Positions 3,160 to 57,787 of a stretch of 64,000 nt of DNA are shown in pieces. The DNA lies in assembly GCF_058153355.1 (NCBI RefSeq), contig NZ_CM177019.1; one strand, 5' to 3'. Below the pieces are notes generated by a model. That model made no database searches. It was given only the letters and a program-made list of their open reading frames with translations, and was not told the DNA's origin. Position numbers and translations under genes: made by a program. Numbering within the stretch: the first letter of the stretch is position 1; each line of letters starts with the position of its first letter.

Positions 3160-3245
3160 CTCGTTTATCAGGCCTACATAGTCTGTGCAATGTATTGAAT
3201 TTGCACGATTTTGTAGGCTGGATAAGGCGTTCACGCCGCATCCGG
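3160..3245. repeat. REP/BIME element (gcctgat..atcaggcctac and gccggatgcggcgtgaacgccttatccagcctac palindromic units)
   Basis: Sequence matches the Enterobacterial repetitive extragenic palindrome consensus (Y and Z-type units in opposite orientation). Confidence 0.7.
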
Positions 3246-6745: not shown

Positions 6746-6776
<31 letters not shown>

Positions 6777-6806
6777 TCTACCCCGGTTTCCCAGATTGCA
6801 GGCATG

Positions 6807-8200
<1,394 letters not shown>

Positions 8201-21009: not shown

Positions 21010-22929
21010 ATGAATAAGTTTATCGCTGCTGAAGCTGCGGAATGTATAGGCTGTCATGCTTGTGAAATTGCCTGTGCGGTGGCACATAATCAAGAAAACT
21101 GGCCGCTGAGTCACAGTGACTTTCGACCGCGTATCCACGTTGTAGGGAAAGGCCAGGCTGCGAATCCGGTGGCCTGCCATCATTGCAACAATGCCCCTTG
21201 CGTTACGGCTTGTCCGGTTAATGCTCTGACTTTCCAGCCCGATAGCGTACAACTGGACGAGCAAAAATGTATTGGTTGTAAAAGATGCGCAATCGCTTGC
21301 CCCTTTGGCGTCGTTGAGATGGTCGATACGATTGCGCAGAAATGCGACCTTTGTAACCAGCGCAGTTCCGGCACGCAAGCCTGTATTGACGTATGCCCAA
21401 CACAGGCGTTACGGCTGATGGACGATAAAGGGTTGCAGCAGATAAAGGTGGCCCGCCAGCGCAAAACGGCAGCAGGAAAAGCGTCATCAGACGCTCAGCC
21501 ATCTCGCAGTGCAGCGTTGCTCCCCGTTAACTCGCGTAAAGGCGCAGATAAAATTTCAGCGAATGAACGGAAAACCCACTTTGGCGAAATTTATTGCGGG
21601 CTGGATCCACAACAAGCGACTTATGAGAGTGACCGCTGTGTTTATTGCGCCGAAAAAGCTAACTGCAACTGGCATTGCCCGCTGCATAACGCTATTCCGG
21701 ATTACATCCGTCTGGTGCAGGAAGGAAAGATTATTGAAGCGGCAGAACTTTGCCACCAGACCAGTTCCTTACCAGAAATCTGCGGCAGGGTATGTCCACA
21801 GGACCGTCTTTGTGAAGGCGCATGTACTTTGAAAGATCACTCTGGCGCAGTCTCTATCGGGAATCTGGAACGCTACATCACCGATACCGCGCTGGCGATG
21901 GGCTGGCGTCCTGATGTCAGCCATGTTGTTCCCCGTATCGAAAAAGTGGCGGTGATTGGCGCAGGGCCTGCAGGGTTAGGGTGTGCTGATATTCTGGCGC
22001 GCGCAGGAGTTCAGGTTGATGTCTTTGATCGCCATCCAGAAATTGGCGGTATGCTGACTTTTGGCATACCTCCTTTCAAACTCGATAAAACGGTATTAAG
22101 CCAGCGGCGAGAGATATTCACCGCAATGGGAATCGACTTTCATCTTAACTGTGAAATTGGCCGCGATATTACCTTTAGCGATTTAACTTCTGAATATGAT
22201 GCAGTTTTCATCGGCGTGGGGACTTACGGGATGATGCGAGCAGATCTGCCGCATGAAGATGCGCCCGGTGTCATTCAGGCTCTACCGTTCCTGACTGCCC
22301 ATACCCGCCAGCTCATGGGGTTGCCGGAGTCTGAAGAGTATCCGCTGACGGATGTGGAAGGTAAGCGAGTTGTGGTATTGGGCGGTGGCGATACGACCAT
22401 GGATTGTTTGCGGACTTCCATCCGCCTCAATGCCGCCAGCGTGACCTGCGCCTATCGTCGTGATGAAGTCAGTATGCCGGGCTCGCGCAAAGAGGTGGTC
22501 AATGCGCGCGAGGAAGGTGTCGAGTTTCAGTTCAATGTTCAGCCGCAATATATCGCTTGTGACGAAGATGGGCGTTTAACTGCGGTGGGCCTGATTCGTA
22601 CCGCTATGGGGGAGCCGGGGCCGGATGGTCGCCGTCGTCCTCGTCCGGTAGCGGGTTCAGAGTTTGAGCTGCCCGCCGATGTTCTGATTATGGCCTTTGG
22701 TTTCCAGGCGCATGCCATGCCGTGGTTGCAAGGCAGCGGAATTAAGCTCGATAAATGGGGCCTGATTCAAACCGGGGACGTCGGGTATTTACCCACCCAG
22801 ACGCATCTGAAAAAAGTCTTTGCTGGTGGTGATGCAGTTCATGGCGCGGATCTGGTCGTCACTGCAATGGCTGCAGGAAGGCAAGCGGCGCGCGATATGT
22901 TAACTCTGTTTGATTCGAAGGCATTGTGA
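21010..22929 (+). CDS. ygfT: fused Fe-S ferredoxin / NAD(P)H-dependent glutamate-synthase-small-subunit-like oxidoreductase (639 aa)
   Basis: N-terminal multiple CxxCxxCxxxCP 4Fe-4S motifs followed by a GltD-like FAD/NAD(P) domain ([24 protein letters not shown]); start set at [12 protein letters not shown] to give 639 aa. Confidence 0.85.
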
Positions 22930-51872: not shown

Positions 51873-52628
51873 TTGAGTGCGGGACGCCTGAATAAAAAAT
51901 CTCTGGGTATCGTGATGTTGTTATCGATTGGACTGCTTTTGGCGGGCTGTTCGGGTTGCAAATCATCCGATACAGGAACGTATTCCGGCTCCGTTTACAC
52001 CGTGAAACGGGGGGATACGCTATATCGTATTTCGCGCACCACGGGAACCAGCGTAAAAGAACTTGCGCGACTGAACGGCATTTCACCCCCTTACACCATT
52101 GAAGTTGGTCAGAAACTAAAACTGGGTGGGGCGAAAAATAGCAGTAGTACACGTAAAGCAACCGCCAAATCAACGACCAAAACCGCATCGGTTACACCGT
52201 CATCAGCGGTACCGAAATCTTCCTGGCCGCCAGTAGGGCAACGTTGTTGGTTATGGCCAACGACAGGGAAAGTTATCATGCCGTATTCGACAGCTGATGG
52301 CGGCAATAAAGGGATTGATATCTCTGCTCCACGGGGTACACCTATTTACGCCGCGGGTGCAGGAAAGGTGGTGTATGTGGGCAACCAGCTGCGTGGCTAC
52401 GGTAATCTCATCATGATTAAACACAGTGAAGATTACATTACGGCTTACGCCCATAATGACACGATGCTGGTAAATAATGGGCAAAGCGTGAAGGCTGGGC
52501 AAAAAATCGCCACTATGGGGAGCACTGATGCGGCATCGGTTCGCCTGCATTTCCAGATTCGTTACCGTGCAACGGCAATTGATCCGCTACGTTACTTGCC
52601 GCCTCAGGGCAGCAAGCCAAAATGCTGA
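51873..52628 (+). CDS. ygeR: LysM + M23-peptidase-domain lipoprotein (251 aa, TTG start)
   Basis: Lipobox LLLAGC-SG; LysM (YTVKRGDTLYRISRTTG); M23 HxxxD/HxH region; TTG at 51873 preceded by GAGGAAAG gives the 251-aa length. Confidence 0.85.
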   Translation: MSAGRLNKKSLGIVMLLSIGLLLAGCSGCKSSDTGTYSGSVYTVKRGDTLYRISRTTGTSVKELARLNGISPPYTIEVGQKLKLGGAKNSSSTRKATAKSTTKTASVTPSSAVPKSSWPPVGQRCWLWPTTGKVIMPYSTADGGNKGIDISAPRGTPIYAAGAGKVVYVGNQLRGYGNLIMIKHSEDYITAYAHNDTMLVNNGQSVKAGQKIATMGSTDAASVRLHFQIRYRATAIDPLRYLPPQGSKPKC

Positions 52629-52706: not shown

Positions 52707-52780
52707 GCGGGCGTAGTTCAATGGTAGAACGAGAGCTTCCCAAGCTCTATACGAGGGTTCGATTCCCTTCGTCCGCTCCA
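52707..52780 (+). tRNA. glyU: tRNA-Gly (anticodon CCC)
   Basis: GCGGGCGTAGTTCAATGGTAGAACGAGAGCTTCCCAAGCTCTATACGAGGGTTCGATTCCCTTCGTCCGCTCCA: cloverleaf, anticodon loop cuuCCCaag, T-loop GGTTCGATTCC, encoded CCA. Confidence 0.95.
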
Positions 52781-52944
52781 AACAAACATTTCTCAACGTC
52801 TACTAAAGTCCATCAAACCCACGAGTATCAAGCCTTCCAGCCATTTTCATAGTTTATTAACGTCTACTCACAACTACCAGAATCTACACACAGAAGTGTA
52901 TAGTAATGCGTATAGGACAAAATTTATTTTTTGGAGCTATACAC

Positions 52945-54309
52945 ATGCTGCTTTCAGACCTTGCCATCAGGCGCGCGAAGCCGAAAGAAAAGGCTTATAC
53001 ACTCAATGACGGTAACGGGCTTTCGTTGCTCATTGAGCCGAACGGTTCGAAAGGGTGGCGACTGCGCTACAGGTTTGCAGGAAAGCCCAAAATGTTGTCG
53101 TTGGGTGTGTACCCTGATGTGTCTCTGTCTGATGCCAGGGCGGCAAGGGATGAGGCTAAAAGGCTTCTTGCTGGTGGTATAAATCCAAGTGAGGCCAGAA
53201 AAGCCCAAAAGCGAGAACAGGCGAGCAAATTTGGCAATACTTTTGAGGGTATCGCTCGCGAATGGTACGAAAAGCGGATCGACAGGTGGTCATCGTCATA
53301 CGCCGAGGAAATGATCGAGACGTTTGAAAAAGACGTTTTTCCGTACATTGGCGGTAGGCCGATCGCAGAAATTAAGCCGATGGAATTGCTGGCGGTTCTT
53401 TCCCGTCTTAATGACCGTGGTGCGACTGAAAAATTGCGTAAGGTTCGCCAGCGATGTGGCGAGGTGTTCCGGTACGCAATCATCACCGGACGCGCCGAAT
53501 ATAATCCAGCCCCTGACCTGGTGAGCGCATTTGCTCCACATAAAAAAGAGCATTACGCCTGTTTGAAGGCCGATGAACTGCCGGAATTTTTCCGCGTTTT
53601 TAATACGTACACCGGAAGCCAGATCGTCAAACTGGCAATGCGGCTATTAATTCTGACAGGTGTCAGACCCGGGGAATTACGGCAGGCAGAATGGCGGGAG
53701 ATCGATTTTGATAATCGTTTGTGGGAAGTGCCTAAAGAACGAATGAAGATGCGCCGTCCGCATTGCGTGCCATTACCAGAACAGGCGATAAAAATACTGG
53801 AGCAGTTAAAAAACATGACAGGTCAGTATCAGTTTATTTTCCCCGGTCGTATTCACCACAGTAAACCAATGAGTGAAATGGCAATGAATGTGCTCATTCG
53901 TCGTATTGGCTACGCCGGGCGCGTTACTGGTCATGGATTCCGGCACACCATGAGCACCATTTTGCATGAGCAGGGCTATAACACCGCGTGGATAGAGACA
54001 CAGCTTGCGCACGCCGATAAAAACTCAATTCGTGGCACATACAACCATGCGCAATATCTGGATGGCAGACGCGAAATGCTCCAGTGGTATGCCGACTATA
54101 TGGATTCGCTCGAGCATGGCGGAAATGTGGTGCATGGTGAGTTCGGAAAATGCGGGGGACTGGTTGAGTATACAGTAGTAGACTTTGAGCGACTAAAAAC
54201 GGCTGTGTCTAGGGTCGCTCCTGAAAACCCGTACACCTCTGCGGGCTGGCACAGCCACTATGGTAGAGGGCGCGAGGTGACGCGTGATCGATATTGCCGA
54301 ATTACTTAA
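52945..54309 (+). CDS. P4-family (tRNA-targeting) tyrosine integrase, about 454 aa
   Basis: Start MLLSDLAIRRAKPKEKAYTLNDGNGLSLLIEPNGSKGWRLRYRFAGKPKML is the classic P4-type Int N-terminus (arm-binding domain). Catalytic R..HxxR..Y region present (GHGFRHTMSTILHEQG; RGTYNHAQY). Lies 165 bp after the tRNA 3' end. Confidence 0.9.
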   Translation: MLLSDLAIRRAKPKEKAYTLNDGNGLSLLIEPNGSKGWRLRYRFAGKPKMLSLGVYPDVSLSDARAARDEAKRLLAGGINPSEARKAQKREQASKFGNTFEGIAREWYEKRIDRWSSSYAEEMIETFEKDVFPYIGGRPIAEIKPMELLAVLSRLNDRGATEKLRKVRQRCGEVFRYAIITGRAEYNPAPDLVSAFAPHKKEHYACLKADELPEFFRVFNTYTGSQIVKLAMRLLILTGVRPGELRQAEWREIDFDNRLWEVPKERMKMRRPHCVPLPEQAIKILEQLKNMTGQYQFIFPGRIHHSKPMSEMAMNVLIRRIGYAGRVTGHGFRHTMSTILHEQGYNTAWIETQLAHADKNSIRGTYNHAQYLDGRREMLQWYADYMDSLEHGGNVVHGEFGKCGGLVEYTVVDFERLKTAVSRVAPENPYTSAGWHSHYGRGREVTRDRYCRIT

Positions 54310-55287: not shown

Positions 55288-55485
55288 ATGTCAAATACGC
55301 TTATTCGTTTAACGGAAGTTCAGCGTAGAACTGGATATAGCAAGGCATGGATTTATCGCCTTATGGGGCAAGGTAAATTTCCTGCATCAGTTAAAATTGG
55401 CTCGCGAGCTATTGCTTTCGTTGAGAGTGAAATTGACGAGTGGATTAATCAGCGTATTGCTGAATCACGCGGAACAGCTACCTGA
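55288..55485 (+). CDS. alpA: AlpA-family phage/island transcriptional regulator (MerR-like HTH, 65 aa)
   Basis: MSNTLIRLTEVQRRTGYSKAWIYRLMGQGKFPASVKIGSRAIAFVESEIDEWI is the canonical AlpA/prophage CP4-57 regulatory protein pattern. Confidence 0.88.
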   Translation: MSNTLIRLTEVQRRTGYSKAWIYRLMGQGKFPASVKIGSRAIAFVESEIDEWINQRIAESRGTAT

Positions 55486-55563: not shown

Positions 55564-56364
55564 ATGAAATTTCCAAAAACGCCCATACAGGGGCAGGGCT
55601 TCGTTCGGCTTGAAAACCAGAATCTGCAAAATTTTGGCAAAATTATCCCGGTTATTTCCGGCGTTATTGGCGGGCGTGAAACCAATATTGTTAGCGCCAG
55701 AGCGTTGCATAAGGCGCTCGGGGTAGGCCGTGATTTCACAACCTGGATTAAAGTACGCATTGATGAGTACGGATTTAAAAAGGGCGTGGATTTTGAATTC
55801 GTAGAAAATTTGACCTCCCCCAATCCGGTGAGCGCAAAATCTCGCCAACGTATAGAGCACGACTACCTGAGCACTATCAACATGGCGAAAGAACTGGCGA
55901 TGGTCGAACGCACCGAACAGGGCCGCGCCGTTCGTCAGTATTTCATCAAATGCGAGGAGGAGCTACACAAGGTAGCGCCTGTGCGTTCCGCAGCGTTACG
56001 CCGGGAACTGAAAGCCCGTATCACTGTTGCCAGCTACTTTAAGCCAATGTGCGCCGCGCTGGAGGCGTACCGGGCAGAACTGGGTAAAAACACTCTACAG
56101 CACCACTACACCACGGAAGCTAATATGCTGGCGCGTATCGTGCTGGGTGGCATGACTGCAAAACAGTGGGCACTGGCGAACGGCATCACAAGCGAACCAC
56201 GCGACCACATGAGCACGTTGCAGCTTGAGCACCTTTCTTACCTTGAGCAGAGCAATATCACGCTGATTGAGTTAGGCCAGGACTACCACCAGCGGAAAGC
56301 TGAATTAATTCGTCTTTCGCAGCGCTGGTTAGCCCGTCGCATGGAGGAAAACAACCATGTGTAA
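55564..56364 (+). CDS. AntA/AntB-type antirepressor-like protein (266 aa)
   Basis: N-terminal segment SARALHKALGVGRDFTTWIKVRIDEYGFKKGVDFEF fits the AntA domain consensus (..L...L.....F..WIK.RI.EYGF..G.DF). Confidence 0.7.
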   Translation: MKFPKTPIQGQGFVRLENQNLQNFGKIIPVISGVIGGRETNIVSARALHKALGVGRDFTTWIKVRIDEYGFKKGVDFEFVENLTSPNPVSAKSRQRIEHDYLSTINMAKELAMVERTEQGRAVRQYFIKCEEELHKVAPVRSAALRRELKARITVASYFKPMCAALEAYRAELGKNTLQHHYTTEANMLARIVLGGMTAKQWALANGITSEPRDHMSTLQLEHLSYLEQSNITLIELGQDYHQRKAELIRLSQRWLARRMEENNHV

Positions 56365-57018
56365 CGCTCTGACCGTTACAAAAAGAGAAAGCGCCCCGTT
56401 GCCGGAGCGCCTTTGTGAACGAATAGCCTACTGCGCCATATTGCTTACTGTCTACGAGGCAGATTATAGCGTTGTGGTCGCACAGAGTGAAGGCACTGAT
56501 CACCGTTACTACAGCACGCCAGAAATGCAGAATATTTTGCTGCAAAATGCCGCTGGCCACGCTGTCCGGAAAGCAAAAAATTTTGCTGGTGGCGCGACTG
56601 ATACGATTTTTTCTGGTCGCCAGGTGCTGATCAATCTGATGTCTGATTTCGTTCTGGATAAAACAAAGGCGACCGCAGAGGGCCACCAGTGGGAAAGCTA
56701 CACACTTGAACACATCGCCAACAATGCCAGATTTGCGGCTGGTGGGCAATGTGATCAGTGTGTTGGCTTGCTGGTGGGCTGTTCGTCTGGTTCAGTCCGT
56801 TGCCATGCATGGAGTGAACGCATTTTCCAGGAATACTCTTTGAGGTACTTCTCAAGAGCAAACGCACACGGGGCGAATCTCTCCGGTTCATGTTCGTTTA
56901 CCGCATTTTTGCGTTGTTTTTTCCTGGATGAGGATAATTTCTTTAATGATTTGTCAGTCATCGTATATACCTGTAACCCTGTGCGCCACAGTTCACTGCA
57001 CCACGGCGCTGATGGTGA

Positions 57019-57198
57019 TTACTCTGATTCTTTGGCCTTGCGGCGCTGGCGGCGTTTGATCTCACCTTCAAGTGCCGAAACGATAAATTGTCCAGTGCTT
57101 TCGCCTTCTTCCTTTAAACTTTCTACAGCGTCAGCTATTGCATGGGGTACTCGTGCCTCAAGTTTTTTTGATTTTCCATTAACTGCTTTCGTTGCCAT
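57019..57198 (-). CDS. ribbon-helix-helix (Arc/MetJ/CopG-like) small DNA-binding protein, 59 aa
   Basis: MATKAVNGKSKKLEARVPHAIADAVESLKEEGESTGQFIVSALEGEIKRRQRRKAKESE: beta-strand K-L-E-A-R-V followed by two helices, classic RHH layout; AAGGGA RBS; divergent from the rightward operon. Confidence 0.65.
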   Translation of the reverse strand: MATKAVNGKSKKLEARVPHAIADAVESLKEEGESTGQFIVSALEGEIKRRQRRKAKESE

Positions 57199-57218
57199 AT
57201 CTGATTCCCTTGTTATTA

Positions 57219-57299
57219 GGTGGCTGACAGTATACACACAAGAAAATGGAAAAACACTATTGACGTGGCTGACACCTGTTACTAGTATAGTGGCTGACA
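57219..57299. promoter_or_regulatory. divergent control region: three direct repeats GTGGCTGACA (57220, 57265, 57290) overlapping a sigma70-like promoter TTGACG-17-TAGTAT reading rightward
   Basis: Motifs read directly; repeat 2 abuts the -35 hexamer (57260-57265) and repeat 3 lies 2 nt after the -10 (57283-57288). Confidence 0.55.
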
Positions 57300-57787
57300 C
57301 CTTTATTAAGGTAATCGATGAAAAGACAAAGCCCGCAGGCGCTACCAACACCAACGGGCTTCTAACCACCAACGATAGAAAGCGTATCGAGGTAGCTATG
57401 TTAAATCATACCACACACCCGCAAGGGCGGGACTCGCACAACCTGAATAAAGCGGGGGTAAAAAACCAGTTGATCGCCACTGCCAGCCAGGGCTATGATT
57501 TATCTGCACCAGCAAAATCTGGTGCCCGGATTGGCGTCCTGAAAATTCTGAAGGCGACATATGACGCGCCGAGCGTCTTTTTTTATGTCGTAGGTCTGAC
57601 TCACCCATTTTTTGGGCGTTGGTGTATAATCCAGCGCCTTTGTCAATCAATGGTGGCTCAGGCGGGGGCTTCTTCGGAAGCGCCGGTATCCTTCAGAGCC
57701 GGTTACGCCAACCCTGTCTGGGCTACCACCAGCGAAATTGGCGTTTCCGGTGGTAGCGTAACCTGCTATCTGAAGGAGGCTGCCGAC

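Follow-up and report, generated by a model that had tools for sequence, protein, structure and literature searches.

A lineage-private G-U wobble in the acceptor stem of glyU at the attachment site of a decaying P4-integrase island

The 64,000-nucleotide stretch of contig NZ_CM177019.1 that was analysed here, the whole of which is called the window below, contains a single tRNA gene according to ARAGORN, a tRNA-Gly(CCC) gene located at 52707-52780 on the plus strand and corresponding to glyU of E. coli. It is followed by an integrase-bearing island that extends beyond the window end at 64000. One base in the acceptor stem of this gene, a T at tRNA position 68 (T68), differs from the C found in E. 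coli glyU, and a preliminary description of the locus, made from the letters alone, had proposed that this T was supplied by the incoming element. The features that make up the junction between the chromosome and the island are the following.

52707-52780 (+): glyU, tRNA-Gly(CCC), complete with its CCA end, bacterial side of the left attachment site, attL (ARAGORN; Rfam tRNA, 69.6 bits; cloverleaf fold)
52763-52781 (+): attachment (att) core, a 19-bp block, TTCCCTTCG(T)CCGCTCCAA, common to attL and to the right attachment site, attR, of related islands (attL and attR of 17 related islands compared)
52772 (+): variant T, tRNA position 68, opposite G5 and giving a G5-U68 wobble (differs from 5409 of 5410 complete E. 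coli genomes)
52782-52944 (+): P' arm of attL, with arm-type repeats GTGTATAG at 52896 and GCGTATAG at 52908 and the inverted repeat CTATACAC at 52937 (motif search)
52945-54309 (+): P4-family tyrosine integrase, 454 amino acids (Pfam domains; homology to P4 Int)
54202-54269 (+): int-alpA RNA motif (RF02996) lying inside the extended integrase frame (Rfam, 45.5 bits, gathering score 35.8)

The 3' strand of the window glyU (52767-52780) reads CTTCGTCCGCTCCA, and its counterpart in glyU of K-12 MG1655 reads CTTCGCCCGCTCCA; over the last 16 bases of the tRNA (52765-52780) the two sequences are CCCTTCGTCCGCTCCA and CCCTTCGCCCGCTCCA, respectively. The T at 52772 replaces a G-C by a G-U pair in the acceptor stem, so that the difference from E. 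coli glyU and the wobble pair, both announced in the preliminary description, are confirmed by the comparison with MG1655 and with the other complete genomes. Folding is predicted to give one and the same cloverleaf for both versions, with energies of -27.5 kcal/mol for the T and -30.2 kcal/mol for the C form, i.e. 2.7 kcal/mol are lost. The identity elements of glycyl-tRNA synthetase (GlyRS) are U73, G1-C72, C2-G71, G3-C70, C35 and C36, and the 5:68 pair is not among them. Only C66, C68 and C69 of the glyU 3' strand allow a C-to-T change that keeps pairing and spares both the GlyRS pairs and the G3-U70 alanine determinant. In Salmonella, a deletion of glyU is viable (bioRxiv 10.1101/2024.04.04.588050).

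To what extent the T is shared was determined in several collections. A search with the 74-nt tRNA matched 5410 complete E. coli genomes, of which a single one agrees at 100% and the remaining 5409 differ at one base. No enterobacterial genome contained the T-bearing 25-mer when 185,579 GTDB species representatives were scanned, the matches coming from unrelated taxa only. T68 occurs in IMG/VR only in unrelated phage-borne tRNA-Gly genes, where it forms an A5-U68 pair, and two scans of the JGI metagenomes returned zero matches for the T junction or for a T-type enterobacterial glyU. All five assemblies of the lineage that were read at glyU, namely SRR8656992, SRR31441161, GCA_015332025.1, GCA_043012465.1 and the window, carry T68. 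As the same T is present in five independent assemblies built from different read sets, a sequencing or assembly error was discarded as its source and is considered next to impossible. The exact ActS protein of the window, encoded by the last chromosomal gene before glyU, was found on five contigs only, all of which bear the island, and T68 was present in the four of them that were fetched and read. The exact AntA allele of the island is confined to the same lineage, both alleles being limited to the same 5-6 assemblies. Since T68 is restricted to one small clade together with the element variant and the chromosomal allele, the distribution of the three gives no leverage on their order of arrival. 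Taken together with the attL junctions described below, these data show that T68 is a genuine change with a mild structural effect, that it is confined to this lineage, and that the island family as such does not carry it.

When the upstream flank was compared with 5426 complete E. coli genomes, the best identity was 98.7% and most values were near 96.5%, so that the host falls in an E. coli-group lineage that is uncommon. Two complete genomes, 2013C-4282 and WL297, come closest by this flank (98.7%); they have no island and carry C at position 68.

The sequence following the CCA end is ATTTATCTTC in island-free genomes and AACAAACATT in the window, the departure from the island-free flank being immediate. 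The integrase gene starts with an ATG at 52945, the 165th base past the tRNA end (164 nt lie between them). The integration at the 3' end of tRNA-Gly(CCC) and the position of a P4-family integrase gene, both proposed earlier, are therefore borne out. The predicted integrase contains the domains Arm-DNA-bind_3 (PF13356, 2.5e-26), Phage_int_M (PF22022, 1.1e-32) and Phage_integrase (PF00589, 6.4e-28) and shares 39% identity with P4 Int across 405 residues (E = 2e-96). In the catalytic region, HGFRHT and RGTYNH of the window align with HGFRTM and RAAYIH of P4, which covers the HxxR motif and the Tyr. By these features the protein is assigned to the P4 (heterobivalent) family. It agrees with the integrase of SA31-1 at 401 of 404 residues, and three substitutions, Y206C, residue 251 to R and V357A, are private to the lineage.

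The arm-type motif GTGTATAG occurs six times in the 64 kb, and three of these occurrences fall in the 164-bp P' arm; two copies are also found in the P arm adjoining attR in SA31-1 and F9792. In the 17 related islands whose attR was read (of about 66 in the family), the tRNA stands at one end and a partial 3' tRNA copy at the other, followed by the normal glyU flank, and the shared block that holds the strand exchange is TTCCCTTCGCCCGCTCCAA. This is the arrangement on which Islander relies, the island sequence restoring the split tRNA gene and the displaced fragment marking the far end (PMC4383910). The terminal 16-25 nt of the tRNA were not found to recur within the 64-kb window, with 2-3 mismatches allowed, because the island runs past the window end; the attR of the lineage itself lies beyond it, and exact-protein matches to the primase fragment, the ISSso6 transposase, the integrase, ActS and AntA led, within the lineage, only to short-read contigs interrupted at insertion sequence (IS) elements.

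Whether the island family carries the T can be read from its other members. The attL junctions of twelve of them (SA31-1, F9792, OkiPb01676, E1, STEC388, ETEC1747, TUM9812, cq9, 52F4, GF43 and ETEC4077, which are complete genomes, and one IMG/VR contig) have a C in 12 of 12 cases. SA31-1 has a C at attL, yet its P' arm differs from that of the window at only 1 of 164 bases. The same integrase adjoins actS/glyU in 79 complete E. coli genomes, and T68 is absent from all of them according to the tRNA query. It follows that the T is no property of the element family. Free forms of the attachment site were also looked for. A BLAST search with the core and the integrase gene against phage and plasmid collections gave no match for a free attP, and a synthetic attP query, composed of P arm, core and P' arm, found no full-length junction in complete E. 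coli genomes. No attP or tandem junction bearing the T was found in IMG/VR, the JGI metagenomes or the complete E. coli genomes, nor was a tandem junction of the family with the CC deletion described in the next paragraph. A scan of IMG/VR for the P' junction yielded one match, which is of the C type.

The position of the crossover relative to position 68 was approached through natural markers in the attR sites. The CCC run at positions 68-70 is shortened by one C in 11 of the 17 attR cores, across six P-arm types and three flank types (examples of core coordinates are L002 34133-34149, L047 34902-34918 and L055 28802-28818). In 52F4, the P arm and the CC deletion are those of OkiPb01676, TUM9812, 08-00022 and ECamp52, but the adjoining flank is of the K-12 type. 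ETEC1747 and ETEC4077 have an identical 45-nt P arm and differ at positions 68-70 of the distal core, which are CC in the former and CCC in the latter, and the CC form accompanies one class of flanks, the a-type, whatever the P arm. Among the IMG/VR relatives, the identity blocks start at T54, A58, T59 or C61, which bounds the overlap region to 61-77 only. In the literature on the crossover position, Islander distinguishes three coarse subsites only (PMC4383910). A placement of the crossover 3' of position 68 that was initially drawn from the CC deletion at the SA31-1 attR was withdrawn once the 17 attR sites had been read, as ETEC4077 contradicts it.

The only one of the 5410 complete E. coli genomes with T68, that of LR-64-1, carries an unrelated island, with a 544-amino-acid integrase, directly after glyU. 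Sharing of the T by descent between LR-64-1 and the window was rejected, their flanks being only 96.3-97.1% identical. Integrase islands are present at glyU in about 9% of complete genomes, 79 of them belonging to the P4-type family and up to 394 to the 544-amino-acid family.

We consider it somewhat better than an even bet that the T at 52772 is a lineage-private transition produced by ordinary mutation. A satellite entered the last 18-19 bp of glyU through site-specific recombination, its host belonging to a rare E. coli-group lineage, and the T would go back to an ordinary C-to-T point mutation within this lineage or its immediate ancestor rather than to a standing attP variant. The T could persist if, as predicted, G-U pairing is kept, the pair lies outside the known GlyRS identity elements and the tRNA is dispensable as it is in Salmonella. 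Position 68 being hit twice is also less odd than it looks, since only C66, C68 and C69 permit such a change. Several observations weigh against an ordinary mutation. T68 is known only in island-bearing genomes, in two independent lineages, and no island-free genome with T68 was found among the genomes searched; the coincidence of T68 and an island in LR-64-1 has a chance of about 0.09 under independence, which is a weak hint. LR-64-1 moreover displays a T at attL, and its next att core, which lies 6.1 kb downstream, has a C. From its nearest relatives the integrase region of the window island differs by about 2%, corresponding to 24 expected differences in 1215 bp, so that an extra change in the 18-bp core before integration is not unlikely. 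Finally, in the pair ETEC1747/ETEC4077 the marker stays with the flank, which would place the crossover 5' of position 68 and make attL position 68 element-derived. The same observations favour supply of the T by the incoming element, with the exchange 5' of position 68 and the chromosomal C displaced to attR, an explanation that we regard as possible though rather doubtful. The principle behind it is established (PMC4383910), the linkage of the CC form to the a-type flanks fits a crossover on that side, and LR-64-1 has the predicted pattern, although with another integrase family; the closest relative of its element, in 21AR0133, however, has a C at both cores. In addition, all other family members have a C at attL, SA31-1 included, no T-bearing attP or tandem junction was encountered in the searches above, and the element variant occurs in no other host. 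In 52F4, the marker moves with the element, which would put the crossover 3' of positions 68-70 and make attL position 68 chromosomal. Linkage of the CC form to the element alone or to the flank alone would each need one extra event, and marker-linkage arguments are weakened by the co-inheritance of island and flank. The natural markers in the 17 attR sites conflict on whether position 68 belongs to the chromosomal or to the element side of the crossover. Two claims of the preliminary description, that the element supplied the T and that the variant base marks the crossover-proximal part of attL, accordingly find no support here, the former without being refuted either.

A different origin, which we judge improbable, would be a recombination scar: positions 68-70 would be the very point of strand exchange for integrases that target glyU, and faulty exchange or heteroduplex repair would have produced the deletion at attR and the C-to-T change at attL. 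The shortest identity block, from C61 to A77, is compatible with this, as the overlap then lies somewhere in a stretch that includes positions 68-70, and both T68 lineages carry islands. The recurrence of CCC-to-CC in 11 of 17 attR sites on six P-arm types and three flank types also speaks for such a scar, since a history of single linkage needs an extra event, but joint inheritance of island and flank could account for most CC cases. A hotspot would take more than two T events, and the cleavage positions are only approached through sequence comparison. With lambda-type integrases, a 1-nt length difference in the overlap region normally blocks recombination, which counts against the scar as well. 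Ordinary mutation within the lineage or its immediate ancestor stays the explanation that we prefer.

The gene upstream of glyU and the remaining features of the island, as far as it is contained in the window, are the following.

51873-52628 (+): actS (ygeR), last chromosomal gene upstream of glyU, a rare allele (LysM and Peptidase_M23 domains; synteny with xdhABC and ygeV as in E. coli)
55288-55485 (+): AlpA-like helix-turn-helix regulator, 65 amino acids (L021 and L040 have the identical gene, with Phage_AlpA and HTH_17 matches)
55564-56364 (+): AntA/AntB antirepressor-family protein (Pfam AntA, 1.7e-22)
56357-57976 (+): long open reading frame (ORF) of 539 amino acids with a C-terminal Ash-family domain (Pfam Phage_ASH, 4e-35)
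57506-57583: isrK RNA motif within the 539-amino-acid ORF (Rfam, 68.8 bits)
57646-57733: C4 antisense RNA motif within the 539-amino-acid ORF (Rfam, 79.9 bits)
58001-60468 (+): IS66-family insertion with tnpA, tnpB and tnpC (Pfam; comparison with L021)
60853-61152 (+): gene for a DUF4222 protein (gene call with PF13973 in L021)
61149-62189 (+): primase gene fragment with a D5_N domain, interrupted by ISSso6 (Pfam D5_N, 2e-15)
62166-63692 (+): ISSso6-like element of the IS110 family, with its transposase gene at 62248-63423 (Pfam; BLAST)
63484-64000 (+): 205-bp end segment of ISSso6 in at least 2.5 tandem copies, continuing past the window end (Tandem Repeats Finder, period 205, 100% identity; BLAST)

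The order of actS (ygeR), xdhABC, ygeV and their neighbours is that of E. coli. Elsewhere in the chromosomal part of the window, Rfam recognises naRNA4, of the repetitive extragenic palindromic type and on both strands, at 8030-8107 and the ES036 small RNA at 3170-3212, neither of which has a connection to the island.

The island of the window is decaying, as shown by a cut primase gene, an IS66 element present in some isolates and a lost integrase stop, and it is probably immobile. The stop codon at 54157-54159, which is TGA in the sister assembly L021, is GGA in the window, so that the integrase frame is extended by 50 codons and runs through the int-alpA RNA motif; this is the sole base difference between the window and L021 over 9.3 kb. 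L021 also lacks the 2468-bp IS66 element, the sequences being 99.99% identical on both sides of it with a 9-nt overlap at the junction. The intact primases of relatives are 590-710 amino acids long. As to the 539-amino-acid ORF (56357-57976), it may be a fusion or an overcall; in relatives, this stretch is annotated as separate small Icd-like or Ash genes.

The ISSso6 copy of the window has 1527-bp matches of 99.9-100% identity in E. coli 53638 and in Shigella boydii CDC 3083-94. A related satellite at a different locus in E. coli 53638 (L031) likewise has ISSso6 in its primase gene, and over the 265 bp preceding the IS it is 99.3% identical to the window. The shared site fits sequence-specific targeting by an IS110-family element. 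The 205-bp tandem array of the window copy may reflect either a true amplification of the terminal part of the IS or an error of assembly. Another ISSso6 copy (L034) was seen to have its 3' part duplicated over 525 bp.

The complete relatives of the island are 7.8-19 kb long and share the gene order int, alpA, antA, icd-like, DUF4222 and primase, then genes for ProQ/FinO and PerC proteins and accessory genes, some with superinfection-exclusion or abortive infection (Abi) genes at the distal end. They end in the partial 3' copy of the tRNA, which is followed by the normal glyU flank and the E. coli type III secretion system 2 (ETT2) region. No psu, sid, delta or epsilon gene was found among the Pfam matches of the window or the annotations of ten complete relatives, a dedicated Psu or Sid profile search not being part of this comparison. 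The integrase domains, the arm repeats, the AlpA, AntA, Ash, DUF4222 and primase genes and the int-alpA, isrK and C4 motifs identify the element as a P4-integrase, phage-inducible chromosomal island (PICI)-like phage satellite at the last 18-19 bp of glyU. Both the window and the complete relatives have the PICI layout of an integrase gene, an alpA-type regulator and a primase module, with no lysis gene and no full set of virion genes.

The resemblance to P4, which targets leuX, is considerable. The integrase has the same domain architecture, the att core is in both cases the last ~20 bp of the tRNA gene from the T-loop to CCA (GAGTCCGGCCTTCGGCACCA in P4 and TTCCCTTCGCCCGCTCCA here), arm-type repeats lie on both sides of the core with int adjoining it, and an antisense RNA motif of the C4/CI type is found in the window island. 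Unlike P4, the island is at glyU, its complete relatives have no annotated genes of the psu, sid, delta or epsilon type, and the primase of the family is of the D5_N or DUF927 type, of which only a fragment is left in the window. Enterobacterial PICIs of the EcCICFT073 type, reportedly described by Fillol-Salom et al. in 2018, are closer: the order int, alpA, antirepressor or regulators, primase or replication genes and accessory genes, the length of 8-19 kb, the flanking att repeats and the int-alpA RNA motif are all alike, whereas the window copy is broken by two IS elements. By its layout the element fits an enterobacterial PICI better than P4 proper. P4-type integrases also drive islands at other tRNA genes, such as the Yersinia high-pathogenicity island at asn tDNA and the SHI-2 and LEE islands at selC. 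These have in common with the present island a repeat of 17-20 bp that is the tRNA 3' end, an int gene beside a tRNA gene that stays intact and a 3' fragment displaced to the far end, which in the case of the window island is past 64000; they differ from it in that its cargo is satellite-like and without virulence genes. This kind of island is well known, the family being present in dozens of sequenced genomes.

Other arrangements at glyU deserve mention. In ETEC4077 (L066 1283-30350), the tRNA is followed by a P4-family island, then by a second island with a reverse-oriented 406-amino-acid integrase at its far end and then by the flank, and 08-00022 (L151 1380-1700) has the two islands in reversed order. 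Judging from these and the preceding islands, glyU in E. coli is a busy hotspot at which at least three integrase families use one 18-bp core, sometimes in tandem. The island with the 544-amino-acid integrase, 6-7 kb long and matched in part by up to 394 complete E. coli genomes, contains two exact 23-nt copies of the T7 class III promoter consensus, TAATACGACTCACTATAGGGAGA, both on the plus strand (21973-21995 and 22092-22114 in LR-64-1, L001; 13912-13934 and 14031-14053 in 21AR0133, L045). Beyond these promoters come dense short tandem repeats (L001 22300-22930) and then genes for Rha, DUF6971 and unknown proteins. PADLOC gave no matches on the genes of this island, and no description of this element was found in the literature. 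It could be a T7-triggered satellite or a defence island.

Related junctions were also seen in IMG/VR. On contigs L083 (9785-9836) and L124 (~6769-6820), the tRNA-Gly(CCC) upstream of a related integrase is reduced to its 3' 52 nt, beginning at the anticodon stem, and the DNA before this piece is unrelated, which suggests another upstream element that would cross over in the anticodon loop. The metagenome contig L090 (9819-9836) has P-arm-like sequence, the core CCCTTCACCCGCTCCA, of the A67 type as in glyU of L077 and L103, and then the P' arm and the integrase, with no tRNA within 9.8 kb upstream of the junction; this may be a tandem junction or else the attP of a satellite in packaged or circular form. 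L077 and L103, relatives from other species, had been taken up as possible proof of an element-supplied 3' end, but their T6-A67 pair is compensated, and they were set aside as uninformative.

If the recombination-scar explanation were true, natural polymorphism of the att core would map the crossover and reveal integrase-linked mutagenesis of a tRNA gene. As it stands, the att catalogue (12 attL, 17 attR and tandem junctions) shows that a single core difference is not readable as element-derived without the crossover point and the other family members. The locus itself is a textbook case of a decaying satellite island borne by a tRNA gene, and the base change amounts to a tolerated wobble pair in a tRNA that can be dispensed with, at least in Salmonella, so that it matters little.

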